From Bacteroidaceae bacterium (GTDB lineage: Bacteria; Bacteroidota; Bacteroidia; Bacteroidales; Bacteroidaceae), in NCBI GenBank assembly GCA_017428785.1, contig JAFRQD010000048.1, forward strand, positions 56,358 to 120,357: a stretch of DNA of 64,000 bases, in the 5' to 3' direction. Under the pieces are notes generated by a model. The model was not told where the DNA came from and ran no database searches. It saw nothing but the letters and a program-made list of their open reading frames with translations. The stretch's first letter is position 1; each line of letters opens with the position of its first letter. Below are positions 2,311-58,865 of this stretch, piece by piece. Made by a program: the position numbers and the translations under genes.

Positions 2311-4092
2311 ATGACACGCGAACACCCACTCATAGGCATCACGGGCAACTTTGGGGAGAAGGGCTGCGAACTGGCTGAGGGCTACTATCTCTCTGTCCTC
2401 AAGGCGGGAGGAACGCCGGTTGCCATTCCGCCTCACAACGACAAGCAAGCGCTCATCTCTCTCCTGGAAACCCTCGACGGCATCGTCTTCTCAGGAGGCG
2501 GCGACATCAACCCGCTCCTCCTCGGCGAAGAGCCTTTGCCTCAGCTCCATAGTGTCTGCCCGAAACGCGACGAGCCGGAACTCTTCCTCGCTCGCGAAGC
2601 CTTCCACCGGCAAATACCGATGCTGGGCATCTGCCGAGGCATACAAGTGATGGCAGCAGCCCTCGGAGGCAAAGTCTGGCAGGATATTTATATCATTGAA
2701 AATGGAAAATTGAATATTGAAGGGGAATGCGAAACCCAGAATCTTCAATCTTCAATCTTCAATCTTCAATCTTCAATAATAAAGCACTCTCAGGACATGC
2801 CCCGCCACTACGCTTCCCACACAGTCTGCCTCAAGGAAGGAAGTGTGCTCCAAGGCGCCTTCGGCAACAAACAGAGCATTGCTGTCAACTCCTTCCACCA
2901 TCAGGCAGTAAGAGACCCGGGACCGCATCTGAAGGTCTCGGCCATGAGTCCCGACGGCATCATCGAGGGTGTGGAAAGCAGCGAGCACAAGGCATTGCTC
3001 GGCGTACAGTGGCATCCCGAATGCTTCATCCTGAACAACGACGAGAGCCACATGTCGGTCTTCCGCTGGCTCATCAGCGAAGCCAGGACCTTCTCGATGG
3101 CAAAACACATCCACGACACATCTATTATATTAGACAGCCACTGCGACACACCGATGTTCTTCACGGAAAACAGCAGGGAGAACATTCAGATGTTCGGCAC
3201 CCGCTCCGACAAAGTGCTCGTCAACCTGCCGAAGATGAAGGAAGGCCGACTGGATGCATCCATCATGGTGGCCTATCTTCCACAAGGCCCGCGAACAGAA
3301 GAAGCCTACAAGGCTGTCACGGAAAAGGCAAACCGACTGCTCACCCAGATGGACGAGATAGTGCAGGCGAACAACGACCGTGTGGGCTTTGCCGAGACCG
3401 CAGACGACATCCTCCGGCTCAAGGCGCAAGGCAAGAAAGCCATCCTCAGAGGCATCGAGAACGGCTACGCCATCGGTAAGGACCTCAGCCTGCTGGAGCA
3501 ATTCAAGAAGCGCGGCATCGTCTATATGACACTGTGCCATAATGGCGACAACGACATCTGCGACTCGGCAAAAGGAAACGCTGAGCATGGAGGCCTGAGC
3601 GCCTTCGGCCGAGATGTCGTGAGCGAGATGAACCGGCTCGGCATCCTTGTGGACATGAGCCACGCTTCCGAGAAGAGTTTCTACGACGCGCTCGAACTCA
3701 GCAAGGTTCCCATCGTTTGCAGTCACAGCTCTGCACGCGCTCTTTGCGACCATCCGCGCAACCTAACCGACGACCAGATGCGGGCTTTGGCAAAGGCCGA
3801 CGGCGTGGCTCAGATAACGGTGTATCCAGGTTTCCTCCGCACCGACGGAGAAGCCACCGTCATCGACGCCATCGAGCACCTCTGCCACGCAGCAAAGATT
3901 ATGGGCGTGGAGCATGTCGGCCTCGGAACGGATTTCGATGGAGACGGCGGTGTGCCCGGCCTGGCCGATGCCTCCGAGATAATCAACTTCACCCGCCATC
4001 TGCTTCGACGCCAGTTCTCGGAACAGGACATCCGCCTCATCATGGGCGGAAACTTCCTGCGCGCCATGTCAACCGCCAAAATCCCGTTATAA
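2311..4092 (+). CDS. Fusion protein: class-I glutamine amidotransferase/peptidase C26 (PuuD-like) N-terminal domain plus membrane (renal-type, M19) dipeptidase C-terminal domain
   Basis: The N-terminal half has GGGDINP and PMLGICRGIQVM (nucleophile Cys) and HHQAV...WHPE. The C-terminal half has ILDSHCDTP, YMTLCHNGDNDICDS, VDMSHASEKSF, CSHSSARALCDHPRN and GLGTDFDG. Confidence 0.75.
   Translation: MTREHPLIGITGNFGEKGCELAEGYYLSVLKAGGTPVAIPPHNDKQALISLLETLDGIVFSGGGDINPLLLGEEPLPQLHSVCPKRDEPELFLAREAFHRQIPMLGICRGIQVMAAALGGKVWQDIYIIENGKLNIEGECETQNLQSSIFNLQSSIIKHSQDMPRHYASHTVCLKEGSVLQGAFGNKQSIAVNSFHHQAVRDPGPHLKVSAMSPDGIIEGVESSEHKALLGVQWHPECFILNNDESHMSVFRWLISEARTFSMAKHIHDTSIILDSHCDTPMFFTENSRENIQMFGTRSDKVLVNLPKMKEGRLDASIMVAYLPQGPRTEEAYKAVTEKANRLLTQMDEIVQANNDRVGFAETADDILRLKAQGKKAILRGIENGYAIGKDLSLLEQFKKRGIVYMTLCHNGDNDICDSAKGNAEHGGLSAFGRDVVSEMNRLGILVDMSHASEKSFYDALELSKVPIVCSHSSARALCDHPRNLTDDQMRALAKADGVAQITVYPGFLRTDGEATVIDAIEHLCHAAKIMGVEHVGLGTDFDGDGGVPGLADASEIINFTRHLLRRQFSEQDIRLIMGGNFLRAMSTAKIPL
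2694..2780. repeat. Hairpin-capable AT-rich element with (AATCTTC)x5, located in frame inside the C26 domain
   Basis: attgaaaatggaaaattgaatattgaagg is followed by five tandem aatcttc copies at 2740-2774. Together they translate as IIENGKLNIEGECETQNLQSSIFNLQSSII. The same TTCAAT/ATTGAA repeat family occurs intergenically at 36361, 39186, 43040 and 44290. Confidence 0.85.
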
Positions 4093-4123
4093 CGAAATCC
4101 CGTCATAACGAAGAAAAGAAAAG

Positions 4124-5116
4124 ATGAAAAGAGTTATCTTCTGGCTTTCCGCCATAATAATCCTCCTGCTTACATCATGCGACGGACAGAACAAAGGGAA
4201 GCGCCCCATCTCGGATACTATCGCCTTATCATCTTGTCCAGACTTCTCGGTAAGCAATGCCATGCTCTACATCAAAGAGCAATGCGAGTTCGGACCACGC
4301 GTCACAGGCAGCAATGCCTCCAGGCAATGTGGCGATTACCTTGTGGAGCGCTTCAAGGAATTCGGTGCTACGGTTGAGGAGCAGACAGGCGATGTGACCA
4401 TCTGGGACGGCACAAAACTGTCCGTCCGGAACATCATCGCACACATCAACCCCAGCAATCCCGACCGAATCCTGCTGTGTGCCCATTGGGACAGCCGTCC
4501 CTGGGCAGACAACGACCCCGACGAGGCCAACCATCACACGCCTATTCTGGCTGCCAACGACGGTGCCAGCGGAGTTGCTGTCATGCTGGAGATATGCCGG
4601 CTTCTGCAGGAAAGACCGGTACTCGTGGGCGTTGATATGATATGCTTCGACGCTGAGGACTTGGGGACACCGCAATGGGCAGAAGACCGCAACGGCTCCT
4701 CCGACACCTGGTGCCTCGGGTCGAAACTCTGGGCAGAACGAGCCAGAACAGACAACTACAAAGCGCGCTTTGGCATACTGCTCGACATGGTAGGCGGCTA
4801 CGGAGCAAGCTTCTCCCGTGAAGGCGTCAGCAAGCAACTGGCTCTGCCTATCGTCAACCGCGTCTGGCAACTTGCCGGGCAGCTCGGCTACAGGCAGTTC
4901 TTCCCGCTCACAGACGCTGGCTACATTACCGACGACCACATCAATGTGAACGATGCCGGCGTGCCGTGCATCGACATCATCCCCTATTACACCGACGGCC
5001 CAAGCAGCTTCGGTCCCACATGGCACACCCTGAAGGACACGCCGGAGAACATCGACCCGAATGTCCTCGAAGCCGTCGGCCAAACACTTACACAGCTGAT
5101 TTACAATGAGCATTAA
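4124..5116 (+). CDS. M28-family zinc peptidase fold, glutaminyl-peptide cyclotransferase-like lipoprotein
   Basis: It has a lipoprotein signal (LLLTSC) and the motifs LLCAHWDSRPWADND, AANDGASGVAVMLE and ICFDAEDLG, typical of bacterial type-II glutaminyl cyclase/M28. Confidence 0.6.
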   Translation: MKRVIFWLSAIIILLLTSCDGQNKGKRPISDTIALSSCPDFSVSNAMLYIKEQCEFGPRVTGSNASRQCGDYLVERFKEFGATVEEQTGDVTIWDGTKLSVRNIIAHINPSNPDRILLCAHWDSRPWADNDPDEANHHTPILAANDGASGVAVMLEICRLLQERPVLVGVDMICFDAEDLGTPQWAEDRNGSSDTWCLGSKLWAERARTDNYKARFGILLDMVGGYGASFSREGVSKQLALPIVNRVWQLAGQLGYRQFFPLTDAGYITDDHINVNDAGVPCIDIIPYYTDGPSSFGPTWHTLKDTPENIDPNVLEAVGQTLTQLIYNEH

Positions 5117-5528
5117 CCAGATACAGAACGAAATCATCGCGGAGTTCAGCGACTTCGACGATTGGATGGACCGCTACCAGCTACTCATCGACATGGGCAG
5201 CGAGCAGGAACCGCTCGACGAGCAATATAAGACGGAGCAAAACCTCATCGACGGCTGCCAGAGCCGGGTGTGGTTGCAGGCCGATTTAATCGATGGAATG
5301 GTGCATTTTCGTGCGGAAAGCGACGCATTGATCGTAAAGGGAATCGTCACTTTGCTTGTTCGCGTTCTCTCAGACCACACGCCGCAGGAGATACTCGATG
5401 CCGATCTGTACTTCATCGATCGCATCGGGCTTCGAGAACATCTCTCGCCGACCCGAAGCAACGGACTCGGGGCGATGCTCAAGCAAATGCGGATGTATGC
5501 CTTGGCCTTCAAAGTAAAGACCCCCTAA
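5106..5528 (+). CDS. sufE: SufE-family cysteine desulfuration protein
   Basis: 140 aa. The DGCQSRVWL motif and its overall length match SufE/CsdE. Confidence 0.8.
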   Translation: MSINQIQNEIIAEFSDFDDWMDRYQLLIDMGSEQEPLDEQYKTEQNLIDGCQSRVWLQADLIDGMVHFRAESDALIVKGIVTLLVRVLSDHTPQEILDADLYFIDRIGLREHLSPTRSNGLGAMLKQMRMYALAFKVKTP

Positions 5529-5612
5529 CCCCCTTAGGAGGAACTATTGGCAAATGATATGACGACTGAGGCCAAGCATCATAAGGAATTCCCCTTAAAG
5601 GGGGTTAGGGGG
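5521..5612. repeat. Perfect 15-bp inverted repeat (ccccctaaccccctt / aagggggttaggggg) straddling the sufE stop and the dusB start
   Basis: 5521-5535 is the exact reverse complement of 5598-5612. The distal arm is translated as part of the dusB N-terminus (PLKGVRGS). Confidence 0.9.
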
Positions 5613-6608
5613 TCCGCTTTGCTGGCACCGATGGAAGATGTCACCGACATCGGTTTCCGTCTACTTTGCCGGCAGATGGGCGCGGCGATGGTCTATTCTG
5701 AGTTCGTCTCGAGCGACGCCCTCATTCGCCTCGTGAACAAAAGTCTGCTCAAGCTGCAGATTTGTCCCGAGGAAAGGCCGGTAGCCATCCAGATATACGG
5801 CAAGGATGTCGATGCGATGCGCGAGGCGGCAAAGATTGTCGTGGAGCAGGCACACCCCGATGTGCTGGACATCAACTTCGGCTGTCCCGTCAAGAAGGTC
5901 GCGAGCAAAGGTGCCGGAGCCGGCATGCTGCAGAATGTGCCCGGCATCCTCGAGATAACAAAGGCTGTCGTGGAGGCTGTTCCCGATACGCCCGTCACCG
6001 TCAAAACCCGTCTGGCTTGGGACGAAAAGCACCTCCTTTTGCCCGACGGCACGCCCTTCATCGTCGACCTGGCCGAGCGCCTGCAGGACTGCGGCATCAA
6101 GGCATTGACCATCCACGGCCGTACAAGAGCACAGATGTACACCGGAGAGGCCGACTGGACATACATCGGGCAGGTGAAGGCCAATCCCCGCATGCATATC
6201 CCCATCATCGGCAACGGCGACATCACCTCTGCCGAAGAGGCCAGGCAAGCCTTCGACCGCTATGGCGTCGATGCCGTCATGATAGGCCGCGCCACCTTCG
6301 GACGCCCTTGGATATTCCACGAGATAGCCCATCCCGAGCAGCCGCTCACGCTCGACGAGAAGATAGACATACTTAAACAACAAGTGCTCATAAGCATCGA
6401 CCGTGCCTCGCAAGACCCCATCAAGGCCAAGTTCGGCAAAGACCCCGAGCTTTGCGGCATCCGTCATGTCCGTCGCCATCTCGCCGCCACGCCCCTCTTC
6501 AAAGGCATCCCCAACTATCGCGACACCCGCATCGCCATGCTCCGTGCTGAAAAGAAAGAGGACGTCTTCGCCCTCATCGAGCAAACGAGGCAGATGTTGA
6601 AAGCTTGA
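5559..6608 (+). CDS. dusB: tRNA-dihydrouridine synthase
   Basis: LAPMEDVTDIGFRLLCRQMGA, INFGCPVKKV and TIHGRT are Dus-family motifs. The ORF opens at TTG 5547 and the first in-frame ATG is at 5559, so the start is uncertain. Confidence 0.85.
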   Translation: MTTEAKHHKEFPLKGVRGSALLAPMEDVTDIGFRLLCRQMGAAMVYSEFVSSDALIRLVNKSLLKLQICPEERPVAIQIYGKDVDAMREAAKIVVEQAHPDVLDINFGCPVKKVASKGAGAGMLQNVPGILEITKAVVEAVPDTPVTVKTRLAWDEKHLLLPDGTPFIVDLAERLQDCGIKALTIHGRTRAQMYTGEADWTYIGQVKANPRMHIPIIGNGDITSAEEARQAFDRYGVDAVMIGRATFGRPWIFHEIAHPEQPLTLDEKIDILKQQVLISIDRASQDPIKAKFGKDPELCGIRHVRRHLAATPLFKGIPNYRDTRIAMLRAEKKEDVFALIEQTRQMLKA

Positions 6609-6688
6609 CAATTACCCAAATCGGATATCCAATATGGATAATTGTATTTGTCGACTTAACATAAACATTTATCTTTTCCTTCGTCACT

Positions 6689-7555
6689 TTAACAGCCAAC
6701 GAAAGACACTATTACTGAGAATATTACTACTATTATTCCTATGATATTATAGATAAAAGCTTCATTGGATTTTTTATTCATTTCACTATCAAAATCCTTA
6801 TCTATACCAGTATATATAGAGTTGTTTTCTTTGGCGGCCTTTTCTATATCCAAAGCTCCTGCATTTGTGGTAATACGGATACCATTATTTTGTCTTGATA
6901 CGCCATAGACTTTTAGAAGAATTCTTGATATTAAACGTGCTGCACCCTCCGCATCTTGTCCAAAATCTATTGCATACGAGATACTTGTTTTAATAAAAGA
7001 TTCTTTATGAGTCTCATAACCATTAGAAAATTCAAAATCCTCCGCATATTCGCGTGACATAAAAATAGGATACATCTCTAAATCCTTGAAATTCCTTTTA
7101 TAACTATCTTGTCGCAGCAATTTACTCATATATTTTGAAGGTCTCTGCATCTGACTTGTACGAAATCCTTTATTTTCTTGATATACTACATCATAAAATG
7201 TCAGTATTATTAACAAACCTCTATTTGTCGATGTAAAATCTATTACTGTTCCGTCATCCCATGTCCACAGCTTGCCTGCAGGAGAAAACACACTAATGTA
7301 CACCTCTCCTCCACATATATCTGTTCGGACATCTGTTCCTTCGGGATTATCAGCTTGAAGTTGGAGATTCTTTTGCAAATTTTCTATGAGTCCGGGGAAT
7401 ACCCAATCATTACTGTTAAGATAAGATATAGATTTAACATCTATTCCTTTTTCTACAAATCTTACCAACAAACTGCCGCAGTACTCACAGTTTTGTGCAT
7501 TCGTCGTGTTCGCGCCACAATTCGGGCAAACATAAGTTTTTAGTTCCATTTCCAA
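6689..7555 (-). CDS. Zinc-ribbon protein with a C-terminal transmembrane anchor (family not recognised); third gene of the AT-rich island operon
   Basis: It has an N-terminal CPNCGAN..x..CEYCGS zinc ribbon and a C-terminal hydrophobic helix (AFIYNIIGIIVVIFSVIVSFVGC). The gap to the upstream gene is 7 nt. Confidence 0.6.
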   Translation of the reverse strand: MEMELKTYVCPNCGANTTNAQNCEYCGSLLVRFVEKGIDVKSISYLNSNDWVFPGLIENLQKNLQLQADNPEGTDVRTDICGGEVYISVFSPAGKLWTWDDGTVIDFTSTNRGLLIILTFYDVVYQENKGFRTSQMQRPSKYMSKLLRQDSYKRNFKDLEMYPIFMSREYAEDFEFSNGYETHKESFIKTSISYAIDFGQDAEGAARLISRILLKVYGVSRQNNGIRITTNAGALDIEKAAKENNSIYTGIDKDFDSEMNKKSNEAFIYNIIGIIVVIFSVIVSFVGC

Positions 7556-7562
7556 AAGGTTT

Positions 7563-7910
7563 TTAATTATTATTATTAGTTGATAAATACCCTGCTGATA
7601 CTAACATCACTACTTGTAACAGAACAAGCAGTATGATTGCTATTAGATAGTAATTGTCATTAAAACGTTCTGCTGCAAGGCACCCACATATCAGCTCTAT
7701 GAGGGTAAACACGGGGAAAAGGCAGTTGAACGAAACTCTGTAGCCATCGCTCAGTTTCAAAGAGGAGACAACACTGAGCATTATGACAGACAGAATGATG
7801 ATTCCCGAGTTCAGCGCACAATTGAATGTGCTGTAACTTGACAGCATCAAGCCAAACAGTACGTTTAGCAGAAGCAAGATGCTTCCGATAATGATTGAAA
7901 TAGTCTTCAT
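7563..7910 (-). CDS. Small integral membrane protein with about 4 TM helices
   Basis: 115 aa and almost entirely hydrophobic in four segments. It sits 12 nt after the SPFH gene and 7 nt before the zinc-ribbon gene. Confidence 0.55.
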   Translation of the reverse strand: MKTISIIIGSILLLLNVLFGLMLSSYSTFNCALNSGIIILSVIMLSVVSSLKLSDGYRVSFNCLFPVFTLIELICGCLAAERFNDNYYLIAIILLVLLQVVMLVSAGYLSTNNNN

Positions 7911-7922
7911 ACCTTATTATAT

Positions 7923-9029
7923 TTATGGGGTTGGCGGAAGGGGAGGAGGACAGCTTTGGAACATACTGGCAAATTCAGGAAGTGAGGACATCTTTGCCCA
8001 CGCAGGCATTCCCTGCTTCCAGACAAGGGTATCGGCATTCACATGTCCATTCTGTATATAGCCGTTTATCGTGTTAGCATCAAACGGACCTTGCTGCTGC
8101 CCGTTTATTGCCACATAGTATGTCGTACTTTGTGGTATAGGTGGCGGGCCGACCTGTGCATTCATGTTTTGCCCGACCAAGCCTGCCATCTGCCCACCAA
8201 AGCCCGTGCCTGCATTCATGCCCATGCCAATACCAATAGCACCGCCAACAGCTCCCTCATTCTCAGCTGCACGTTCCATCACGCCAAAGCTACGGTCGGC
8301 TTGGTATAAGCTATGGCCCATCAGCTTCAACTTTGCCACCTGTTCCTTCGCTTCTTTCAGTTTGATGAAGCTTGGGTCGTTTTCCGGCACATTGATGGAC
8401 ATGATGTAGAAGTTCTCCAGCTTTATGCCATACTTGTTGAAGTCAGGTTGAAGCACTCCCCGCGTGTAATCCGAAATGTCGGTAAGATGTGAGTTGAGGT
8501 TGAGGATAGAGATGCCGTCCTTGTTCATCTTGTCGGACAGGATGTTGTTGAAGTGCGACATCATCATTCCCTTGAAATACGACTCAATCTTTTCCACCGT
8601 AAACGTGGCCATATTGCCTACAAGGTTTTCGATGAGGATTTTGTCGTCGTTCACTCTCATACCAAACTGACCAAAGGCACGGACGGGAACGATAATCTCA
8701 TACTTCGGGTCTTCAAGTTGGATGGGCGTGGGCGTACCCCACTTTGAATCAAGAACTGCCAAGTGATTGACAAACCACACCTCTGCCTGGAAAGGAGAAT
8801 TGCCACCGAAAGGCAGGTTAATGAGTTTGTTAAGCAGAGGGATGTTCTCTGTCTTAATGGTGTGGGTGCCTGGTCCAAAACTGTCGAGCACCTTGCCTCC
8901 TTTCACAAAGTAGGCAGTCTGTCCTGCGTACACAACCAATTGTGTACCTATCCGCAAATCATTGGAAGGGAATTTGTGAATCAACTCTCGTGAGTTGACT
9001 TCCCATTTCACAACATCAATAAGTGCCAT
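7923..9029 (-). CDS. SPFH/Band-7 family protein (YdjI/COG4260-like) with a C-terminal GYF_2-like domain
   Basis: The N-terminal ~250 aa resemble YdjI-type SPFH proteins, often annotated as virion core protein-like. A Gly/Met-rich linker follows, and the C-terminus (YYVAINGQQQGPF...TLVWKQGMPAWAKMSSLPEFASMF) fits the GYF_2 pattern. Confidence 0.65.
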   Translation of the reverse strand: MALIDVVKWEVNSRELIHKFPSNDLRIGTQLVVYAGQTAYFVKGGKVLDSFGPGTHTIKTENIPLLNKLINLPFGGNSPFQAEVWFVNHLAVLDSKWGTPTPIQLEDPKYEIIVPVRAFGQFGMRVNDDKILIENLVGNMATFTVEKIESYFKGMMMSHFNNILSDKMNKDGISILNLNSHLTDISDYTRGVLQPDFNKYGIKLENFYIMSINVPENDPSFIKLKEAKEQVAKLKLMGHSLYQADRSFGVMERAAENEGAVGGAIGIGMGMNAGTGFGGQMAGLVGQNMNAQVGPPPIPQSTTYYVAINGQQQGPFDANTINGYIQNGHVNADTLVWKQGMPAWAKMSSLPEFASMFQSCPPPLPPTP

Positions 9030-9430
9030 ATATGTATCCTATCATTCGTTGCCTACAGCCACCCCGACTCGGCGTTTGTGTTCGCTAAATGTTATGGATA
9101 CAAAAAGACGTGGGTAGCTTGTACTCGCTTATCCCACGCTCAGGCCCTGGAAATCGCCTTGTCAGAGGATAAGCAACCAATTGGCCCACGTCGTGACATA
9201 TATACTCCATACAAAAGTATGTGATATAAATCACCCACGCGGACGCTTCGATTGCGATATCTTCACTGACATTCAAATTTTCCAGGTTTGAGCGTAGAAG
9301 ATAACGTTCGTAAACGTCCTTTCTCCCTTTGGCAAAGCCCCCTTCCCGTTCCTCCGAAGGAGGAAGGCCGGTGTGCTCAGCCGCAGGAATCCATTAAGAT
9401 TTGACCCTCAAGCCCTTAAAAGAGCCACTT
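9030..9430 (-). promoter_or_regulatory. Candidate long structured 5' leader or ncRNA upstream of the SPFH operon
   Basis: It lies between a TAACTTTG -7 box (9439-9446, minus strand) and the ATG at 9029. It contains a locally GC-rich core with a 7-bp stem closed by a UUCG tetraloop (9349-9365, ttcctcc-ttcg-ggaggaa on the minus strand). No convincing ORF is present. Confidence 0.35.
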
Positions 9431-9438
9431 GGTCGGTG

Positions 9439-9446
9439 CAAAGTTA
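9439..9446 (-). promoter_or_regulatory. -7 box TAACTTTG for the SPFH operon
   Basis: The plus strand reads caaagtta. T-rich TTTG-containing sequence lies ~20-30 nt further upstream on the minus strand. Confidence 0.45.
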
Positions 9447-9812
9447 AGAAAAATATTAATACAACAAAAACAAATGAAAGAAAAAATGTTGCAAAACAAA
9501 GCAAAAACACTCGTCACTCGTCACCAATGCCATTTAAGTCATTATACGTCAATCACATACATGGGTGAAGAGTTGGTGATGAGTGGTTAAGAGACTCTTC
9601 ATCCTGGTACTTACTGAGAATCCGACGATTATAATGGAATGGTAATGAGTGATGAGCAAAATGCAATTTCATTTCATTCAACATTTCCCAATCTGTCTAC
9701 ATGTTTTCGCCTGAAAGCCGCATGGATAAAGGGATTACTTCAAATCATAACCTACATAAAGCCTACATAATACTACATATTCAAACATTGCATGCTTGGT
9801 TGGGCAACTTAA

Positions 9813-9867
9813 CACGTTAAGTTTGCGAACTTGGCACGTTAAGTTTGAGGTTTTACCACGTTAAGTT
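9813..9867. repeat. Three CACGTTAAGTT copies at exact 22-bp spacing; the first sits in an 18-bp palindrome (aacttaac-ac-gttaagtt)
   Basis: The copies start at 9813, 9835 and 9857. Confidence 0.85.
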
Positions 9868-10047
9868 CGGAGTATTTTCTCGCGACATTTAGCCGATGAT
9901 AATGCCGATACCTGAGAAATGGAAGACGGCAATGTACTGAGCGAAAGCAGAAGTGTATATAAGTTCCGATGGCCGTAAAGATAAGATAATTAGGCATCTT
10001 ACATATGATAAAATTAAGGATTTCGTGTGTAAAGGAAGATTTTTTTG

Positions 10048-10055
10048 TATCTTTG
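10048..10055 (+). promoter_or_regulatory. -7 box TATCTTTG for the GH78-like gene
   Basis: It matches TAnnTTTG, 20 nt upstream of the ATG at 10075. Confidence 0.55.
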
Positions 10056-10074
10056 CAGCAGAAATAGCAAAAAA

Positions 10075-12816
10075 ATGAAGATGAAAACCAGAAGCTTCTT
10101 TACATTCCTGTTCTTACTGGCAGCCTTGTGCATTCGGGCTGCTTTCAATGCTTACGACCTGCGCTGCGAGCTTTTGCACCAGCCGTGTGGCATCAACACG
10201 ACGACGCCTGCCCTGAGCTGGAAACTCACGCAGGACCACAATGGTGCGCGGCAGTCGGCCTATCAGATTCTTGCAGCCTCCAAGCCCAGTCTGCTTACGG
10301 AGGAGAAGGCCGACCTCTGGAACAGCGGCCGCGTTGAGAGCGAGCAGTCTATATGGGTGACGTATGCAGGCAAGCCGCTCGAAAGCAGGAGCGAGGTCTA
10401 TTGGCAAGTGAAGGTGTGGGACGAGAACGGCAAGAGCGGCGACTGGGCCCGCGGTGCCTGGTTCTCCGTCGGCATCCTCGACAAGCCGCTTTGGCAAGGC
10501 AAGTACATCGGCATGGGGCGAACGGACCGCAAGGTGCAGCCGCTCCTCTACAAATCGTTTGTCTGCACAGACACCAAGGCTCCTGCCTTCCTGCACATCA
10601 GCACGCTGGGCTATCACGAGATATACCTCAATGGCGAACGCATCGGCGACGATGTGCTGACGCCTTCCGTAGTGGAGTTCTCCAAACGCCATCAGGCGAT
10701 GAGCTATAAGCTGGGCGGGAAACTTCGCGAAGGCCGCAACGACCTGGTCATCTGGCTTGGTGGCGGATTCTACGACAACCCGAAGATTGTGGGTGTTGCA
10801 GAGGGCGGACCCTACGCTCTGGCGCAGATTGACCAGCAAACGGCGAGTGGCTGGCAGACGCTTGTCGCTACCGACGACACCTGGCAGTCGAGGGGGAGCG
10901 GTTACTACGACGACGGTCAGGCCGGAGCCTGGGCGTTCGGCGGTGAAATCGTGGAGGCGGCAGAGCTCCTGCCCGACTTCTCGTCCTCTACGCTCGACGC
11001 TGTCTCATGGCAAGGCGTGACGACGATGGAGCTGCCTGCCCAAGAGATAACGCCGATGATGTGCGAGCCGAACAAAATCATGATGGAGGTGCAGGCTGAG
11101 AAGGTGAGCCGCTTCGACGGGAACAAATGGATGGTGGACATGGGCCGCAGCATTGTGGGCTGGACGCGCATCAAGCTCGGGCATCTCCGCAAGGGACAGC
11201 GCATCACCATCAGCTACTGCGACATGCTGGCGCTCAGCGGCGACTTCGACGAAGGTGTCTTCACGGACCACTATATCGCAAGCGGCGATGGTGAGGAGAC
11301 TTTCTGCAACAAATTCAATTACCACGCTTATCGGTACATCAAGATAGAGGGCCTCGACCGTCAGCCTGCCCTTTCCGACATAGCAGGCATGCTCGTGCAT
11401 ACGGGCTACGAGAAGGCGGCGTCGTTCGTCTGCAGCGACAAGGACCTCTGCGCCATACACGACATGGTGCACTACACCTTCCGCTGTCTGACGCTCGGCG
11501 GCTATATGGTGGACTGCCCGCACATCGAGCGCCAGGGCTACGGCGGCGACGGCAATGCCTCCATCCTGGCTGCGCAGCTGCAATACGACATGTATCCGCT
11601 CTACCGCAACTGGCTGCAAGGCTATACCGACGCCCAGGGCGACGACGGCGAGGTGCCGCATGTGGGACCGGCCTTCTGGCAATGCGGCGGCGGCCCGTTC
11701 TGGTGCGCCTTCATCGCAAACGCTCCTTGGCAAACCTACCAGCAGTACGGCGACCTCAGGCTGCTGCAGTGGTACTACCCCAACATGCAGCGCTACCTGG
11801 CATACGCCGAGCAATTCATGCCCGACGGCTTGCTGACGGTGGAGCATCGCTGGCCGAGCACGCGCCGCAAGGACTGGTTCCTCGGCGACTGGGCGTTGCC
11901 CAACGAGGAGCATCAGACGCACACCGAGAGCATCGACCTCGTGAACTCTTGCTCCATGAGCTGGGTGTATGACATCATGGCTGCTACGGCCGAGCTGCTT
12001 GGCAAGACCGACGACGCACAGCTCTACAGGCAGAAGCGGACGGACATCAACCGCCTCATCCACGCTACATATTATAATAAGAAGAACGCCACCTACGCCA
12101 ACGGCCTGCAGCTCGACCAGAGCTTCCCACTCTTTGTCGGCGCCGTGCCCGAGGAGCTGCGGCAGAAGGTCAACAACGCCCTGAAGCGCGAGACCTACGA
12201 CCGTTTCGACGGCCACCTCTTCACCGGACTGGTGGGCGTTCCCATCGTGACACAGTGGTGCACCCGCGCCGGCAATGTCCAGCTCATGGCCGACATGCTT
12301 CGGCAGCACAGCTTCCCCGGCTATCTCTACATGATAGACAATGGCGCCACGACGACCTGGGAGCACTGGAACGCCCGACGCAGCCGCATCCACAACTGCT
12401 ACAACGGCATCGGCTCGTGGTTCTATCAGGCACTGGCAGGCATTCAAGGAGATCCCTCGAAGCCCGCCTACCGACACTTCTTCATACAGCCGCAGCTGCC
12501 AGACAGCCTGTCATTCGTGCGGGCTCTCAAGCCCACGCCCTACGGCGACATCAGTGTGGACTGGAAACGTTCGGCCAGCACATTCGACATGCGCCTCAGC
12601 ATCCCGGTCGGCACCACAGCCACAGTGCTCTGTCCGGAGGCGCTGCAGCCCGTCACAGTCGAGATGGCGCCGCGGAGCCTGAACCGTTCGGGCCTGGTCT
12701 TCAACGAAAAAGAGCGCAACCGCAAGCCCGACCCCGAACCTGAGCGCTTCAATCCCAAGGAACCGATTGAGCTGAGCAGCGGCACTTACCGCCTCATTTA
12801 TCGACTGAAAAAGTAG
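10075..12816 (+). CDS. Alpha-L-rhamnosidase-like glycoside hydrolase (GH78-related), secreted
   Basis: Starting from ATG 10075 gives the signal peptide MKMKTRSFFTFLFLLAALCIRA. The TTG at 10045 falls inside the promoter box. It has the six-hairpin catalytic-region motif DCPHIERQGYGGDGNAS and a rhamnosidase N-terminal-type beginning (YDLRCELLHQPCGINTTTPALSW). Confidence 0.7.
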   Translation: MKMKTRSFFTFLFLLAALCIRAAFNAYDLRCELLHQPCGINTTTPALSWKLTQDHNGARQSAYQILAASKPSLLTEEKADLWNSGRVESEQSIWVTYAGKPLESRSEVYWQVKVWDENGKSGDWARGAWFSVGILDKPLWQGKYIGMGRTDRKVQPLLYKSFVCTDTKAPAFLHISTLGYHEIYLNGERIGDDVLTPSVVEFSKRHQAMSYKLGGKLREGRNDLVIWLGGGFYDNPKIVGVAEGGPYALAQIDQQTASGWQTLVATDDTWQSRGSGYYDDGQAGAWAFGGEIVEAAELLPDFSSSTLDAVSWQGVTTMELPAQEITPMMCEPNKIMMEVQAEKVSRFDGNKWMVDMGRSIVGWTRIKLGHLRKGQRITISYCDMLALSGDFDEGVFTDHYIASGDGEETFCNKFNYHAYRYIKIEGLDRQPALSDIAGMLVHTGYEKAASFVCSDKDLCAIHDMVHYTFRCLTLGGYMVDCPHIERQGYGGDGNASILAAQLQYDMYPLYRNWLQGYTDAQGDDGEVPHVGPAFWQCGGGPFWCAFIANAPWQTYQQYGDLRLLQWYYPNMQRYLAYAEQFMPDGLLTVEHRWPSTRRKDWFLGDWALPNEEHQTHTESIDLVNSCSMSWVYDIMAATAELLGKTDDAQLYRQKRTDINRLIHATYYNKKNATYANGLQLDQSFPLFVGAVPEELRQKVNNALKRETYDRFDGHLFTGLVGVPIVTQWCTRAGNVQLMADMLRQHSFPGYLYMIDNGATTTWEHWNARRSRIHNCYNGIGSWFYQALAGIQGDPSKPAYRHFFIQPQLPDSLSFVRALKPTPYGDISVDWKRSASTFDMRLSIPVGTTATVLCPEALQPVTVEMAPRSLNRSGLVFNEKERNRKPDPEPERFNPKEPIELSSGTYRLIYRLKK

Positions 12817-25031: not shown

Positions 25032-26690
25032 TTAGAAGAGAACCTTCTTACCGTTCACGATGTTGATGCCCTTCTGCATCTTCTGGAGGCGCTGGCCTGC
25101 AAGGTTGTAGATAGCACCACCTTCAGCAGCATTGTGGATTGCCTCAATGCCTGTAGCATTCTCGTCAAAGACGAAGCTCTTCACATTGACATCGCTATCG
25201 ATAACGACATAAGCGCGATCCATAGCCACTGTGCTCTCATTAGCTCTGTAGAAGCCAATGTTATGAGTAGCATCTGCATAAAGAATGAAGACCTTGTTTG
25301 TTGCACTGTAGGTTAATATTACACTCGAGCCCTGACCGCGACGAAGGACATTGGTAGCAGGCACCTCATCGGGTGTTTCTGTAGTGACGGGAATTTCAAC
25401 CTCGCCATTGGTGCCACCTGCCTTAACAAGAACTACAGGAACTCCAGCGCCAACGATGTTAATGGGATTATACACGAGTCTGGTGCCGTCCAAAGTCAGA
25501 TAAGAAACCTGAATGCCAGAGTTTGTGAAGTCGAGCGCTCTGTCGCAGCAGAATGTTGCATAGCCGTAGCTGCTTACAGACACCTTAATCAGAGAAGCGA
25601 GCGTCGTCAAATCGATGTCGTCGATGGCGGCATAGCTGCCACTGTTAGCGCTGCAAGAAATGCGGACATACACATCAGAATATTCGCCCAGGTTGACTTC
25701 AACCTTTTGGTAGCTTGTGCCGGTAATGCTCTTTGAGGTTACAGCATCACCCCAGTTAGTGCCATCGGAAGAAACATTGACAGACCAGGTAGCTGTGGCA
25801 TCTGCACCACCTCTTGCATAGAAGGTGAGAGTGCCAGGACTGGTGATTTTCGTTGTGGTTGTGATTGTAGAGCCATTGTGTGCACGGCCACAATTTTCGC
25901 CAGCATGATAAATGTAGTTTGACTGTTCAACGCCGCTGAATACCCAGCTTTCCTCATAACTGGTCAAAGCGCTTTCGAAGTCAACCTTATATTCAGGAGA
26001 AACCGAACTACGATCGAAGTTGATGGTCACCTTAACTGTTGTGCCTTCAGCTGCTTCGGTCACAGCAAATTCGTTGCCATTCTGGGTTACGGTAGCTGTA
26101 CCTTCCGTCACAGTATAAGCAGGCTCTGCAAAGACATAGCCCATAGTCGGCTTGGCTGTGATGACATTGCCCACAACAGACTGGATTGTTCCCCAACCCT
26201 CTTCGTTTACTTCAGCTGTAACTGTATAGGGGAAAACGGGAGCGGTGTAAGTGACTGTGACAGATTGAATCGTGAGGTTTGTATAAGTATAATCATGGGA
26301 AAAAGCCACAGACTCACAATCCAAGCCAGAAACTGTGATAGTCTTCGATGAACTCAGATTTTGATTACTTCCATTGTCCACTGAATAATGCCAAGCATGA
26401 GCATCACTTGCAACAAACTCAATGGAATGGATCTTTGAACCATAGGTCAGAGCCTCTGCTGTCAAAGAGACAGTAAACTTGTCACTTGATGCGGGTACTG
26501 TTATAGCATGACCGCTCAAAGCACCTGTCGTTGAATAAGTGACGAAGGGGTCCACTTTTCCACTGGCAGCAGTGAATTTAGTGAGGGTAGCTGTAACATC
26601 TTCTGCCCAAGCTGTGCCTGCAAAGGCTGTAGTCATAACGGCTACGAGCATGCAGACGCGCAGCCATACCTTGTTAAATACTTGTTTCAT
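25032..26690 (-). CDS. T9SS cargo protein A (552 aa) with a C-terminal sorting domain
   Basis: The signal peptide MKQVFNKVWLRVCMLVAVMTTAFAGTAWA is nearly identical to that of cargo C. The C-terminus GGAIYNLAGQRLQKMQKGINIVNGKKVLF fits the Por_Secre_tail/CTD pattern. A shared pre-CTD module begins at SSYGYATFCCDRALDFT. Confidence 0.7.
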   Translation of the reverse strand: MKQVFNKVWLRVCMLVAVMTTAFAGTAWAEDVTATLTKFTAASGKVDPFVTYSTTGALSGHAITVPASSDKFTVSLTAEALTYGSKIHSIEFVASDAHAWHYSVDNGSNQNLSSSKTITVSGLDCESVAFSHDYTYTNLTIQSVTVTYTAPVFPYTVTAEVNEEGWGTIQSVVGNVITAKPTMGYVFAEPAYTVTEGTATVTQNGNEFAVTEAAEGTTVKVTINFDRSSVSPEYKVDFESALTSYEESWVFSGVEQSNYIYHAGENCGRAHNGSTITTTTKITSPGTLTFYARGGADATATWSVNVSSDGTNWGDAVTSKSITGTSYQKVEVNLGEYSDVYVRISCSANSGSYAAIDDIDLTTLASLIKVSVSSYGYATFCCDRALDFTNSGIQVSYLTLDGTRLVYNPINIVGAGVPVVLVKAGGTNGEVEIPVTTETPDEVPATNVLRRGQGSSVILTYSATNKVFILYADATHNIGFYRANESTVAMDRAYVVIDSDVNVKSFVFDENATGIEAIHNAAEGGAIYNLAGQRLQKMQKGINIVNGKKVLF

Positions 26691-26804
26691 ACCAATAAAA
26701 CTTAAAAAATTGCTTTGGTTAATACTGTTTATTTTGTTATTTCGAATTGCAGATAATCAAGACACTTCTTGGCTTATATCTATAAGTCTTCTACAAAACG
26801 GGCG

Positions 26805-51445: not shown

Positions 51446-51504
51446 ATGAACTTAACGTGCGATGTTTTATGTTTCGATATACGGAGTTTAGTATTTCGAT
51501 GTGT

Positions 51505-58406: not shown

Positions 58407-58491
58407 TTGTTTTTTGTTATTGATTTGCTTATTGTTAATAATAATAATCTTTTTTCTTGTTGTGTGCGGGTTTTTGCACACAGAACTTCCG

Positions 58492-58499
58492 CAAATATA
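58492..58499 (-). promoter_or_regulatory. -7 box TATATTTG for cargo D
   Basis: The plus strand reads caaatata, ~86 nt upstream of the ATG at 58406. Confidence 0.5.
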
Positions 58500-58865
58500 T
58501 AGTTTTTTATGGAAATTACCTACCAGCACCATTGTTAAAAAATGTCAAATGCATCAAAATATATTGTTTGGCGTTTTTAAGATTGGGGAAACCAAGTGAC
58601 TGATAACATGAGATGACAAGCACTTTTGTAAAGATTTTTCTCTTGCGGATGCGTTTTAAGCGCGTTTTTTGACAGTCGTGGCACTTTTCATCACCCGAGG
58701 CGAGAAGTGGGCTCAAAACGCATGCCTATTGACAATCAATTGGTTACAAAGCATCATCTCAAGACAAAATATCATAAAGGTATCAGAATCCTTCGAGGTG
58801 CTGGCAAACGAAGTAAAGTTTTAGGTGAAATTTGACGGAAAAAGACACTCAACGCAACAGGCGGG

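Follow-up and report, generated by a model that had tools for sequence, protein, structure and literature searches.

A mobile four-part SPFH-GYF module of the Bacteroidales, with a structured leader RNA and an exchangeable zinc-ribbon gene, between dusB and a GH78 gene of a gut Bacteroidaceae genome

The closest known system to the locus described here is PspA-SamGHI (YdjGHI) of Bacillus subtilis, in which the SPFH protein SamI requires SamG/SamH for its membrane recruitment (PMC8581546; bioRxiv 10.64898/2026.02.06.704340), the latter source also describing normal biofilms for a pspA mutant and a SamGHI developmental phenotype that is independent of PspA. A further point of reference is GltJ of Myxococcus gliding motility, a protein whose zinc ribbon binds the linker, an adjacent zinc ribbon being found in 44% of bacterial GYF proteins (PMC11135422). 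Two broader likenesses are the SPFH cage complexes (HflK/C-FtsH, QmcA-YbbJ/NfeD, stomatin, flotillin) and the cassette-swapping conflict loci (polymorphic toxin C-terminal replacement, hsdS-type shuffling), where replaceable, anciently diverged 3' modules follow a conserved 5' adaptor. The SPFH-GYF architecture itself was reportedly listed by Balaji and Aravind in 2007 and, to our knowledge, has never been studied since.

The window, i.e., the whole 64 kb stretch analyzed (mean GC 0.529, sd 0.055), comes from a gut Bacteroidaceae genome and holds, between dusB and a GH78 gene, a horizontally acquired cassette of ~3.2 kb, an instance of a mobile module of four parts that recurs in Bacteroidales: a promoter with a ~240-nt leader RNA, an SPFH-GYF protein, a dedicated four-TM (4-TM) protein, and at least one tail-anchored zinc-ribbon protein (Table 1). 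The AT-rich trough that the first-pass annotation had seen here, and had read as a sign of horizontal acquisition, is reproduced both by windowed GC (0.414 in 6609-10044 versus 0.536 across the remaining window, with the lowest 1-kb value of all 64 kb, 0.356, inside the island) and by GC3, which is 0.57, 0.47 and 0.27 for the SPFH-GYF, 4-TM and zinc-ribbon genes versus 0.69-0.80 for the flanking genes. Acquisition is further supported by the occurrence of the module at unrelated chromosomal sites, some of them beside integrases/recombinases, and by sister lineages (DusB 91-92% identical) in which the site is empty or otherwise filled, the stretch from dusB to GH78 holding different genes and none of the three of the island; compared across relatives, the junction thus shows an accessory island whose presence or absence differs even among close ones. 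Just as had been stated, the island and its surroundings showed neither an integrase or transposase gene nor a convincing direct repeat at the flanks, and the XerD-like gene at 627-1559 also occurs in island-less relatives. The extent once given as 6612-10040 needs correction at its right edge: the match to island-less relatives ends at the dusB stop and restarts near 9978, and since homology breaks at ~6608 and 9806-9949 is relic host DNA, the inserted DNA is ~6609-9800. This relic contains a 56-nt remnant of an SSF transporter gene (9894-9949), counterpart of the sister-lineage gene whose place the cassette took, and three copies of CACGTTAAGTT (at 9813, 9835 and 9857, spaced 22 nt). The SSF relic, the structured leader RNA and the way in which the zinc-ribbon gene is replaced and multiplied in tandem are not part of the first-pass annotation.

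Table 1. Features of the dusB-GH78 island, in window coordinates
Feature	Coordinates	Strand	Details and basis
Left junction	6609..6688	.	AT-rich spacer, dusB stop to zinc-ribbon gene stop; homology to island-less relatives ends ~6603-6608
Zinc-ribbon tail-anchored protein, 286 aa (GenBank MBQ6191991.1)	6689..7549	-	N-terminal zinc ribbon, orphan alpha/beta domain, C-terminal TM helix; 575 homologues, alignment A1; alternative TTG start 7555 (288 aa)
4-TM integral membrane protein, 115 aa, own family	7563..7910	-	Hydropathy; position after SPFH-GYF gene
SPFH-GYF protein, 368 aa (GenBank MBQ6191992.1)	7923..9029	-	SPFH(Band_7_1) - long helix - G/M-rich low-complexity linker - PPPIPQ - GYF_2 - CPPPLPPTP tail; Pfam, hydropathy, AF2, Foldseek
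Conserved structured leader RNA, ~240 nt	9100..9342	-	Profile match 9324-9102; rod-like long hairpin
Leader 5' part	9343..9432	-	Predicted small stable hairpins, e.g., CCTTCCTCC-TTCG-GGAGGAACGG at 9367-9346; MFE fold of 403-nt leader
Putative Bacteroidetes-type promoter	9439..9470	-	TTTG ... 19 nt ... TAACTTTG; -7 box 9446-9439; consensus match
Right-side relic host DNA	9806..9949	.	blastn + tblastn vs L049 and L046

All three minus-strand reading frames called earlier (368, 115 and, as 6689-7555, 288 aa) were recovered, and so was the 12-nt gap between genes 1 and 2, whereas the 7-nt gap claimed for genes 2 and 3 holds only with the TTG start, the ATG at 7549, used by homologues and the public annotation alike, leaving 13 nt. 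The assignment of an SPFH domain with a C-terminal GYF_2 to the first gene is borne out by Pfam (Band_7_1, E 2e-50; GYF_2, E 7e-18), both proline motifs being kept in 21 loci; no TM segment was detected by hydropathy, and the product is probably a soluble scaffold protein. Its AF2 model (pLDDT 75; linker 245-299 disordered) is matched by Foldseek with probability 1.00 to the stomatin, prohibitin, HflK/C, QmcA and flotillin cage subunits, on which the predicted SPFH1/2 and long helix superpose, and also to the GltJ GYF domain; against 7z3c, the GYF domain gives E 1e-6. The module shares with the cage systems an operon in which small membrane proteins accompany the SPFH protein; unlike them, it has no N-terminal membrane anchor, NfeD or protease partner, its domain is Band_7_1 and not Band_7, and the likeness comes from a predicted fold. 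The four helices attributed to the 115-aa protein are seen as hydrophobic segments at residues 4-22, 31-49, 61-79 and 89-107, with no match in Pfam, NCBIfam, PADLOC or PHROG; of 1.84 billion representatives, 265 clusters at the 50% identity level belong to its family, the best 150 of which span 72-141 aa (mostly 110-120 aa), and its gene, always immediately 3' of the SPFH-GYF gene, is apparently unannotated in the GenBank MAG, because the accessions of the neighbouring proteins run consecutively. The zinc ribbon and membrane anchor claimed for the third protein are likewise there (Zn_ribbon_3 at residues 7-29, TM helix at 266-284), the ribbon scoring 26.1 bits, slightly below the 27-bit cut-off, and being matched by all 35 aligned homologues (best 1e-10). 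The AF2 model of this protein (pLDDT 85, pTM 0.80) has no fold match in PDB or BFVD, and its sequence has none in PDB.

The resemblance to pspA-ydjGHI that had been proposed stands for the SPFH homology (31% identity to YdjI/SamI over 216 aa, E 5e-26), the ribbon and the overall layout, and falls for the 115-aa 4-TM protein, which is unrelated to the TPM-domain YdjH/SamH. What is shared with SamI/YdjI is an anchor-less Band_7_1 SPFH followed by a G/M/N/Q-rich linker and, at the C-terminus, a small adaptor domain, GYF_2 standing where SamI has a C-terminal Zn_ribbon_3; what is shared with SamG/YdjG is one or more N-terminal zinc ribbons, a domain of ~200 aa and a C-terminal TM, detectable homology being that of the ribbon alone (30 columns). 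Both systems place a second integral membrane partner in a single operon, whereas the module, as comparison with the B. subtilis locus confirmed, has no PspA, a reversed gene order and the added GYF domain, besides being mobile, having a swappable partner and carrying a structured leader RNA. With GltJ, whose solved GYF is homologous to the GYF_2 found here, there is in common a flexible linker before GYF, a functionally linked zinc ribbon and proline-rich motifs as candidate GYF ligands (PMC11135422; PMC2034487); unlike in GltJ, ribbon and GYF are on separate polypeptides, the GYF is fused to SPFH, and the MglA/MglB/AglZ context is missing.

A motif-based scan over 185,579 species genomes yielded 19 Bacteroidales/Fibrobacter loci, and in 19/19 of these species loci the SPFH-GYF, 4-TM and zinc-ribbon families co-occur strictly and in the identical order. 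The backbone (leader, SPFH-GYF gene and 4-TM gene) retains 84% nucleotide identity up to the gene 2/3 boundary (dN/dS 0.05-0.2: 0.05 for the SPFH-GYF gene, 0.16-0.20 for the 4-TM gene); there, the nucleotide homology to backbones 92% identical stops, protein identity going from 92% (SPFH-GYF) and 73-75% (4-TM) to 38% (zinc-ribbon), with synonymous sites of the third gene saturated. That gene is, then, a variable, swapped and anciently diverged cassette of a mosaic operon, often in tandem arrays (at least two zinc-ribbon/TM genes per locus in at least 7 loci examined). Strong conservation in its product is limited to the 30-residue ribbon (mean pairwise identity 71%, versus 22% for the middle and 16% for the tail; pN 0.036, pS saturated), and a YAIDFGxDAEGAA motif also stays conserved in alignment A1. 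Spare tandem copies downstream are shared with the cassette-swapping conflict loci; in contrast to those, the module has no recognisable toxin, immunity or restriction domain, and its proteins, rather than being secreted, are cytoplasmic with a tail anchor; nor were invertase sites identified in it.

We tentatively infer from this that exchangeable zinc-ribbon adaptors recruit an SPFH scaffold, the whole possibly serving as a conflict system rather than in housekeeping. The SPFH protein would assemble, as a ring or cage, at the inner membrane on its cytoplasmic side; lacking an anchor, it may be recruited there by the 4-TM and tail-anchored zinc-ribbon proteins, as SamI is by SamG/SamH. The zinc ribbon could dock where the scaffold ends in linker and GYF, as though the GltJ ZnR-linker-GYF switch had been split over two polypeptides, and the exchangeable domain would give specificity, as a sensor or client. 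The swapping of the zinc-ribbon component for alleles of ancient divergence, and its multiplication in arrays on a mobile cassette, point to a ligand that most likely varies and comes from outside, from phages or competitors; the module would then act in conflict or defence at the membrane. A membrane-stress or abortive-infection role, as the first-pass annotation suggested, may likewise be conceivable, though PADLOC matched none of the genes. Counted against this reading are the orphan alpha/beta fold of the middle domain, the lack of a recognisable enzymatic effector in the module, the zero matches in PADLOC and PHROGs, and the 146 flanking ORFs, mostly housekeeping and with no consistent defence-island signature. 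Also counted against it is an operon of B. finegoldii (HTH, 226 aa, YidD-like, SPFH-GYF of 406 aa, a 251-aa TM protein, and a ZnR-TPR of 192 aa), whose SPFH-GYF is 39% identical to that of the module and appears core chromosomal (>1000 contigs), and which has a diverged copy of the rod-like leader upstream, its core-like standing fitting a physiological membrane role; a membrane protein and a Zn_ribbon_3 protein follow downstream in both, but the partners are non-homologous (TPR vs alpha/beta domain) and there are extra genes.

It is this paralogous operon, together with the homology to SamI in the same anchor-less, low-complexity-linker layout, the SamG-like layout of the zinc-ribbon partner, the missing effector domains, the zero PADLOC matches on the island genes and the PspA-independence of the SamGHI phenotype, that speaks for an accessory envelope-stress or membrane-homeostasis module, a PspA-less functional analogue of SamGHI that organises or stabilises microdomains of the membrane with no conflict role, its partner diversity a product of weak constraint and recombination. 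Such an explanation is possible, though somewhat less likely: the module is sporadic (the 19 loci of the above scan), varies in presence among close relatives and is accompanied by integrases and recombinases, and a backbone 92% identical on which the partner has been exchanged for long-diverged alleles, with tandem arrays besides, is not what weak constraint predicts, because the zinc ribbon and the YAIDFGxDAEGAA motif are conserved.

Upstream of the SPFH gene lies a rod-shaped, previously undescribed leader RNA (no match in Rfam), with an MFE of -90.9 kcal/mol (z = -5.0). Its long-range helix, in which the 5' block CCTGGAAAAT (9286-9277) pairs with the 3' block GATTTCCAGG (9155-9146), has 97% of cells paired and 7/7 pairs covarying; alternatively, the RNA could fold locally into a compound hairpin (CGTGGG 9191-9186 with CCCACG 9114-9109, and, as a second stem, GCTTATCC 9174-9167 with GGATAAGC 9134-9127), 88.5% paired and with 12/18 pairs covarying, after which comes a U-run at 9108-9100. 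A 5' hairpin of differing sequence opens the leader at other loci as well, and a TAnnTTTG box precedes the element in 21/22. The long hairpin followed by the U-run, and the alternative pairings, suggest that the leader may hold the operon under post-initiation control. The promoter box directly upstream and the hairpin with U-run at the 3' end would also suit a small RNA independent of the operon, with a promoter and terminator to itself, working in trans or as an RNP with the zinc-ribbon proteins (nucleic acid binding being frequent among zinc ribbons), and in two loci (L011 and L021) the element is indeed followed by another -7 box and by additional ORFs; this is nevertheless unlikely, given that at 16 loci a spacer of 28-72 nt without a TAnnTTTG box is all that separates the element from the SPFH ATG, and that an nhmmer profile search over 0.54 Mb returned a single match per locus, on the operon strand and always upstream of the SPFH gene.

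The mobility of the module is also seen in its neighbourhoods elsewhere: in B. acidifaciens one identical SPFH-GYF protein is found in at least 3 contexts adjoining tyrosine integrases, where the module borders small elements with an integrase; there and in L028 an ORF of 195 aa with a Phage_integrase domain is its immediate upstream neighbour; serine recombinases and a tRNA are near it in L030, and toxin-antitoxin, Fic and VapE genes are also among its neighbours. The small B. acidifaciens elements, the 195-aa ORF and the nearby VapE-like and AAA_25 genes would agree with cargo acting for a mobile element (entry exclusion, addiction/stabilisation, or membrane remodelling for transfer), an improbable reading to us, however, as most loci, the window included, have no element genes adjoining the module, it was not found in IMG/VR viral contigs, and conjugation/replication genes show no consistent co-occurrence. 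That the rod is a DNA-level element, such as a MITE-like palindrome or an invertible promoter segment, is hardly credible: the rod does amount to a long inverted repeat, if an imperfect one, and a short tyrosine-recombinase-like ORF adjoins it in a few loci, but in the 0.54 Mb searched it is present in a single copy per locus solely upstream of the module operon, compensatory changes run throughout its interior helices and not just the ends, the sense strand folds more stably than the antisense in 19/19 homologues (by a mean of -14.7 kcal/mol, with 6-17 G-U pairs), and the promoter box lies outside the palindrome.

The locus is directly shown to be an island by comparison with its sister lineages, whose DusB is 91-92% identical and in which the entire left-hand synteny and the GH78 gene are kept. 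Between dusB and the GH78 gene, one of these lineages (L049) has a single SSF transporter gene and two others (L046 and L050) have AraC, 202-aa, 114-aa, Peptidase_C11 and SSF genes, with neither any of the three operon proteins nor the leader RNA being present in that interval of the three, which bears out the horizontal acquisition proposed in the first-pass annotation. Because homology to the sister lineages ends at the dusB stop codon and restarts near 9978, and a 56-nt remnant of the sister-lineage SSF gene survives at 9894-9949, the insertion of ~3.2 kb of DNA (about 6609-9800) was accompanied by the loss of the transporter gene. The drop in base composition claimed by eye is also seen in windowed GC (0.414 in 6609-10044 vs 0.536 in the rest of the window, the lowest-GC 1-kb window of all 64 kb falling inside the island region) and in GC3, which decreases along the operon from 0.57 through 0.47 to 0.27 (genes 1, 2 and 3), neighbouring genes being at 0.69-0.80. 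As had been noted, no integrase or direct repeats flank the island in the window, and a search for direct and inverted repeats around it returned short chance-level matches only, with nothing att-like among them. Other low-GC stretches of the window (31083-34406, minus strand; ~26000-26700; ~57500-58500; 1-kb GC 0.40-0.45) may represent further acquired DNA, the largest one coinciding with a 1107-aa minus-strand ORF. Three copies of CACGTTAAGTT with an exact 22-nt spacing (at 9813, 9835 and 9857, span 9813-9867) sit in the interval that separates the promoters of the island and of GH78, the first of them belonging to the palindrome AACTTAACACGTTAAGTT, and a fourth copy is found at 51449 (minus strand); as a 27-nt piece overlapping the first copy recurs downstream of the SSF gene in L046, these repeats are probably host DNA rather than island DNA, and perhaps operator sites.

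The operon itself consists of three minus-strand ORFs arranged head to tail, as claimed, and the domains attributed to their products were all recovered by Pfam and hydropathy: Band_7_1 and GYF_2 in protein 1 (SPFH-GYF), four TM segments in protein 2 (4-TM), and a zinc ribbon with a C-terminal TM segment in protein 3. Of the two claimed intergenic gaps, that of 12 nt stands, whereas that of 7 nt holds only with the TTG start of gene 3; with the ATG used by homologues and the public annotation, it is 13 nt. The GenBank record of this Bacteroidaceae MAG apparently lacks an annotation of the 4-TM gene: only Logan and ENA contain its exact sequence, and the flanking proteins have consecutive accessions.

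Coordinates of the operon, its leader and the small ORFs accompanying related operons (L-numbers are comparison loci from other genomes)
Feature	Position	Strand	Remark
Gene 1, SPFH-GYF	7923-9029	minus	368 aa; MBQ6191992.1
Gene 2, 4-TM	7563-7910	minus	115 aa
Gene 3, zinc ribbon	6689-7555 (TTG start) or from ATG at 7549	minus	288 aa (TTG) or 286 aa (ATG); MBQ6191991.1
Leader RNA, profile match	9324-9102	minus	E 2e-27
-7 box TAACTTTG	9446-9439	minus	consensus match
Long-range 7-bp helix, CCTGGAAAAT with GATTTCCAGG	9286-9277 with 9155-9146	minus	covariation
Short Phage_integrase-domain ORF	L037 6044-6631; L028 4518-5105		195 aa
Extra ORFs	L021 4199-5527		81/159/197 aa
Extra ORF	L011 3892-4305		137 aa
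Extra ORF	L007 5748-5993		
Extra ORF	L055 4566-4820		
Extra ORFs	several loci		81-87 aa

The three families do co-occur. When one genome per species was scanned by motif, the zinc-ribbon family (575 detectable members) turned up in 19 Bacteroidales/Fibrobacter MAGs (Bacteroidaceae, Prevotella, Alloprevotella, Porphyromonadaceae, Muribaculaceae, Rikenellaceae, Paludibacteraceae and one Fibrobacter; where a host is named, the samples are from the gut or rumen of sheep, yak, horse or chicken), and the order SPFH-GYF, 4-TM protein of 113-118 aa, zinc-ribbon protein on one strand was seen in 19/19 of these loci, the SPFH gene being split in L019 and truncated in L024. Genes flanking the module are unrelated between loci, and operon GC is below flank GC. 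An identical island-type SPFH-GYF sequence is present in B. acidifaciens in at least three different contexts, adjoining tyrosine integrases, and the island type is also found in B. salyersiae and B. finegoldii; neighbours elsewhere include VapE-like and HigBA genes, Fic/RhuM, serine recombinases with a tRNA, and ParE/YoeB. The zinc-ribbon family has no relative in IMG/VR viral contigs, the module family is absent from PHROGs, and phage records gave three weak SPFH matches only.

The operon is also a mosaic. Over 21 loci, proteins 1, 2 and 3 have mean pairwise identities of 63%, 39% and 34%, respectively, and protein 3 divides into a zinc ribbon at 71%, a middle at 22% and a tail at 16%. Two loci at other genomic sites, L055 and L057, are 84% identical to the window at the DNA level over a stretch that starts with the leader RNA and breaks off exactly where gene 2 ends (protein identities of 92%, 73-75% and 38% for proteins 1, 2 and 3, respectively), gene 3 of L057 being alignable over its first 110 nt only. 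Genes 1 and 2 have dN/dS values of 0.05 and 0.16-0.20, respectively, and synonymous sites of gene 3 are saturated (pS 0.75-0.79 vs ~0.5 in the backbone) with a ribbon pN of just 0.036; together with the break at the end of gene 2, this identifies gene 3 as an anciently diverged allele exchanged between backbones, and not simply as a gene that evolves fast, a reading that its much lower GC3 fits as well. Two or more zinc-ribbon/TM genes stand in tandem in L007, L011, L015, L025, L027, L029, L033, L055 and L057. What emerges is a mobile four-part module (leader RNA and three kinds of genes) that is under purifying selection and in which the backbone is constant and the zinc-ribbon partner exchangeable; such cassette swapping on a constant backbone points to a specificity determinant.

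The fourth part resides in the 1-kb non-coding stretch upstream of the SPFH gene, which contains a block conserved between otherwise dissimilar loci. An nhmmer profile built from 19 copies located this ~243-nt leader element exactly once per locus in the 0.54 Mb searched, in every case on the same strand as the operon and ahead of the SPFH gene, and the Bacteroidetes -7 box TAnnTTTG lies just upstream of it in 21/22 loci; no such box was found in the 28-72-nt spacer to the ATG at the 16 loci where the element abuts the SPFH gene. A long rod-like hairpin is predicted for every copy (fold z-scores of -5.0, -5.1 and -6.3 for three of them), the sense strand being more stable than the antisense in 19/19 copies, by a mean of 14.7 kcal/mol, with 6-17 G-U pairs. 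A DNA palindrome, a MITE or an invertible (promoter) segment is very unlikely in view of this strand bias, of the single copy per locus, of compensatory changes within the interior helices and of a promoter box situated outside the palindrome, and a leader peptide or other coding origin was rejected, as tblastx frames were only scattered and the variation takes the form of base-pair covariation. In the long-range 7-bp helix, 97% of cells are paired and both-sided changes occur in 7/7 pairs, while for the whole 22-pair long-range set 82% of cells are paired and 18/22 pairs covary, compared with 63% paired in shuffles (0/500 reaching 82%) and 36-54% on sliding the partners. Good pairing is likewise seen in a local compound hairpin at the 3' end, after which a U-run comes (88.5%, with 12/18 pairs covarying). 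Since both pairing schemes share nucleotides, the rod and the local hairpin would be either alternative folds or a pseudoknot, the energies for the window leader being -90.9 for the rod vs -77.2 kcal/mol for the terminator-constrained fold.

This layout, i.e., a hairpin and U-run between promoter and ORF with competing pairings, is that of an attenuator or riboswitch-like leader, and the element is read here as a probably cis-acting RNA of the attenuator or processing type. The main alternative is a stand-alone small RNA. In B. finegoldii, a paralogous SPFH-GYF operon with different partner proteins is preceded by a diverged leader that has kept the rod (z -3.9), so that the RNA is tied to the SPFH-GYF gene itself. 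Rfam gave no gathering-score match in the window, with only snoRNA noise (E >= 0.026) in 8900-10150, and no match at the leader element of L037, L030, L015 and L023. Two known RNA motifs were met elsewhere in these loci. One is a FopS-family Bacteroidetes sRNA (RF04319, 63 bits) in L023, a Prevotella MAG, whose position (10876-10946, minus strand) is a few kb away from the module; the two are probably unrelated. The other, in the horse-gut MAG L015 (3933-3969, minus strand), is the abiF RNA motif, which exceeds the gathering score with 58.5 bits, precedes the leader element by ~250 nt and indicates an AbiF-type abortive-infection gene adjoining the module there.

With respect to the proteins, protein 1 matches Band_7_1 (PF13421, E 2e-50) and GYF_2 (PF14237, E 7e-18) and has no TM segment (maximum 19-residue hydropathy of 0.94); NCBIfam adds a sub-threshold GltJ match over the GYF region only. 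Its AF2 model comprises a beta-rich N-terminal region plus SPFH (block-mean pLDDT 53-95, mostly 81-95, lower at residues 61-80), a long helix (219-257), a disordered G/M-rich linker (245-299), the GYF domain and a proline tail, and the motifs PPP[IL]PQ before and [CT]PPP[IL]P after the GYF, which are candidate ligands of that domain, are kept in 21/21 loci compared. The SPFH part is matched by Foldseek to the cage subunits of stomatin, prohibitin, HflK/C, QmcA and flotillin (probability 1.00, E 2e-8 to 1e-6, ~230 aligned columns); the model resembles stomatin, prohibitin, HflK/C and flotillin in having the SPFH fold followed by a long helix, but is missing their N-terminal TM helix or hairpin anchor. 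The SPFH+GYF architecture was already listed by Balaji and Aravind in 2007, who also remarked that bacterial GYF domains have proline-rich flanks and TM proteins as neighbours (PMC2034487). Neither Pfam nor NCBIfam has a match for protein 2, which belongs to a small, self-contained family (265 clusters at 50% identity among 1.84 billion representatives; the best 150 of these 265 are 72-141 aa long, mostly 110-120 aa). Protein 3 begins with Zn_ribbon_3, scoring 26.1 bits against a cut-off of 27, although 35/35 aligned homologues match the family, and with the nearly invariant N-terminus YVCPNCGANTTNAQNCEYCGSLLVRF; an alpha/beta domain with a conserved YAIDFGxDAEGAA motif follows (pLDDT 85, pTM 0.80). 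As its single TM segment is at the extreme C-terminus, it is predicted to be a tail-anchored cytoplasmic protein. It is not proline-rich (6 prolines in 286 residues), its model has no significant fold match in PDB (best E 0.015) or BFVD (best E 0.005), with TM scores below 0.2, its sequence has no relative in PDB, and NCBIfam returned weak noise matches only.

PspA-SamGHI (YdjGHI) of Bacillus is induced by envelope stress through sigma-W, and its likeness to the present operon had been put forward in the first-pass annotation. A B. subtilis-type pspA-ydjGHI locus, retrieved and domain-typed for comparison, encodes PspA_IM30, YdjG (Zn_Ribbon_TF and a C-terminal TM helix), YdjH (TPM_phosphatase, E 3e-23) and YdjI (Band_7_1, a low-complexity region and Zn_ribbon_3 at 302-322). 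The likeness survives in the SPFH domain of protein 1 (31% identical to YdjI over 216 aa, E 5e-26), in its anchor-less, linker-bearing layout with a low-complexity region at 245-299, and in the layout of protein 3, which has an N-terminal ribbon, a ~200-aa domain and a C-terminal TM segment, as does YdjG. It fails for protein 2, which is without similarity to the TPM protein YdjH (E 0.96), and, in sequence, for protein 3 outside the ribbon, the profile alignment to YdjG being limited to 30 columns of one ribbon (probability 88%); the C-terminus of protein 1 is GYF_2, in contrast to the Zn_ribbon_3 of YdjI. No PspA_IM30 was found in the operon proteins, the called genes within ~8 kb on either side or the related loci listed, just as had been stated. 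Given this mixed match, the module falls outside the SamGHI family as defined, yet it plausibly works like it.

SamI reaches the membrane only with SamG and SamH (PMC8581546). In GltJ, the Myxococcus gliding protein, the ribbon binds the linker beside the GYF and acts as a switch, and ~44% of bacterial GYF proteins have an adjacent zinc ribbon (PMC11135422). The GYF of protein 1 matches the solved GltJ one (7z3c, E 1e-6, and a structural match), but the ribbon of the module sits on the third protein instead of being contiguous with the GYF in one polypeptide; likewise, SamI carries Zn_ribbon_3 in cis, whereas in the module it is found on the partner, with the GYF in its place. By analogy, such a relocation, together with the GltJ switch, suggests a contact of the ribbon with the linker/GYF in trans.

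What, then, might the module do? The SPFH-GYF protein would form rings at the inner face of the membrane, to which it would be recruited by the 4-TM protein and, via the invariant ribbon, the tail-anchored partner; the variable domain of that partner would confer specificity, and the leader RNA would limit expression of the operon. A conflict or defence role at the membrane is the reading we tentatively favour, short of thinking it probable, because of the mobility, sporadic distribution, allele swapping and arrays. Against it stand the lack of a PADLOC match (none of the three proteins hit a PADLOC-DB v2 family at E <= 1) and of an effector domain, the core-like paralogue in B. finegoldii, and a context without a consistent defence signature: enrichment in defence islands was rejected, as the 146 flanking ORFs scanned with Pfam and PADLOC are mainly housekeeping ones with a few recombinases and HTH genes, and, within the best 25 of 142 PADLOC families matched, all matches were due to two protein kinases. 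A PspA-independent role in membrane homeostasis ranks second and is deemed somewhat unlikely; a role for the mobile element itself ranks third and is quite improbable. Within the favoured conflict or defence role, a bolder version, namely a new kind of mobile, membrane-based anti-phage or anti-competitor system resembling abortive infection, in which an SPFH-GYF cage would hold, or be triggered by, interchangeable sensor or effector cassettes sharing a zinc-ribbon docking tag, with the leader RNA as a new RNA family gating expression, is offered as a speculative and unlikely one.

SPFH, GYF and zinc ribbon are all components of a familiar sort, the SPFH+GYF fusion having been listed in 2007, and the module is rated as one of the SamGHI-like SPFH kind, additionally bearing a new RNA motif. 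The fixed trio, the 4-TM family, the swappable ribbon-tagged partner and the leader RNA are undescribed in Pfam, NCBIfam, PADLOC, PHROGs (where no match was found), Rfam and the literature searched (SPFH in defence, SPFH-GYF in Bacteroides, an sRNA), which holds no report of the module or leader. SPFH proteins are universal, but, to our knowledge, the recruitment and role of the anchor-less ones are poorly understood, and we know of SamGHI as the sole studied case of such recruitment. Being compact, mobile, naturally modular and present in cultured B. acidifaciens and B. salyersiae, the module makes the recruitment logic (zinc ribbon in trans, linker/GYF, 4-TM partner) directly testable; in these two species it is represented by WP_289749927.1 and WP_217740223.1, respectively. 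If the specificity determinant were aimed at phages or competitors, the module would count as the first defence system based on SPFH. The leader RNA, with very clear covariation, absent from Rfam and linked to one operon family, is a candidate new class of cis-regulatory RNA for Bacteroidota, for which we are aware of few such classes.

Several copies in other genomes show peculiarities of their own. In L020 (a Bacteroidales MAG), the module has the same 201-aa Fe/Mn superoxide dismutase gene on either side (4202-4804 and 9046-9648), which suggests that it was inserted by a recombination event duplicating its target gene. In L037-L041 (B. acidifaciens-type) and L028 (Rikenellaceae MAG), the gene immediately upstream of the leader RNA codes for a 195-198-aa Phage_integrase-domain protein, perhaps a truncated integrase, perhaps a small site-specific recombinase linked to the module. 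In some operons, additional short ORFs separate the leader from the SPFH gene, or the 4-TM gene from the zinc-ribbon gene; they have no Pfam match and did not cluster into families across three or more loci. L024 is a degenerate copy, in which a 140-aa ORF (913-1335) joins the SPFH N-terminus to a 4-TM remnant and, farther downstream, a 1026-aa protein (3566-6646) with an N-terminal GLGGTGGK motif matches the linker/GYF of protein 1. Finally, a Vibrio coralliilyticus plasmid (L043, 5971-8124) encodes a Band_7_1 SPFH protein (32% identical, full length) and, next after it, a 352-aa protein whose N-terminus has a CxxC pair resembling a zinc ribbon; the pairing of SPFH with an N-terminal ribbon therefore reaches beyond Bacteroidota and Firmicutes, and the neighbourhood there, with adjoining TIR-domain and TRAFs-binding-domain genes, is defence-like.
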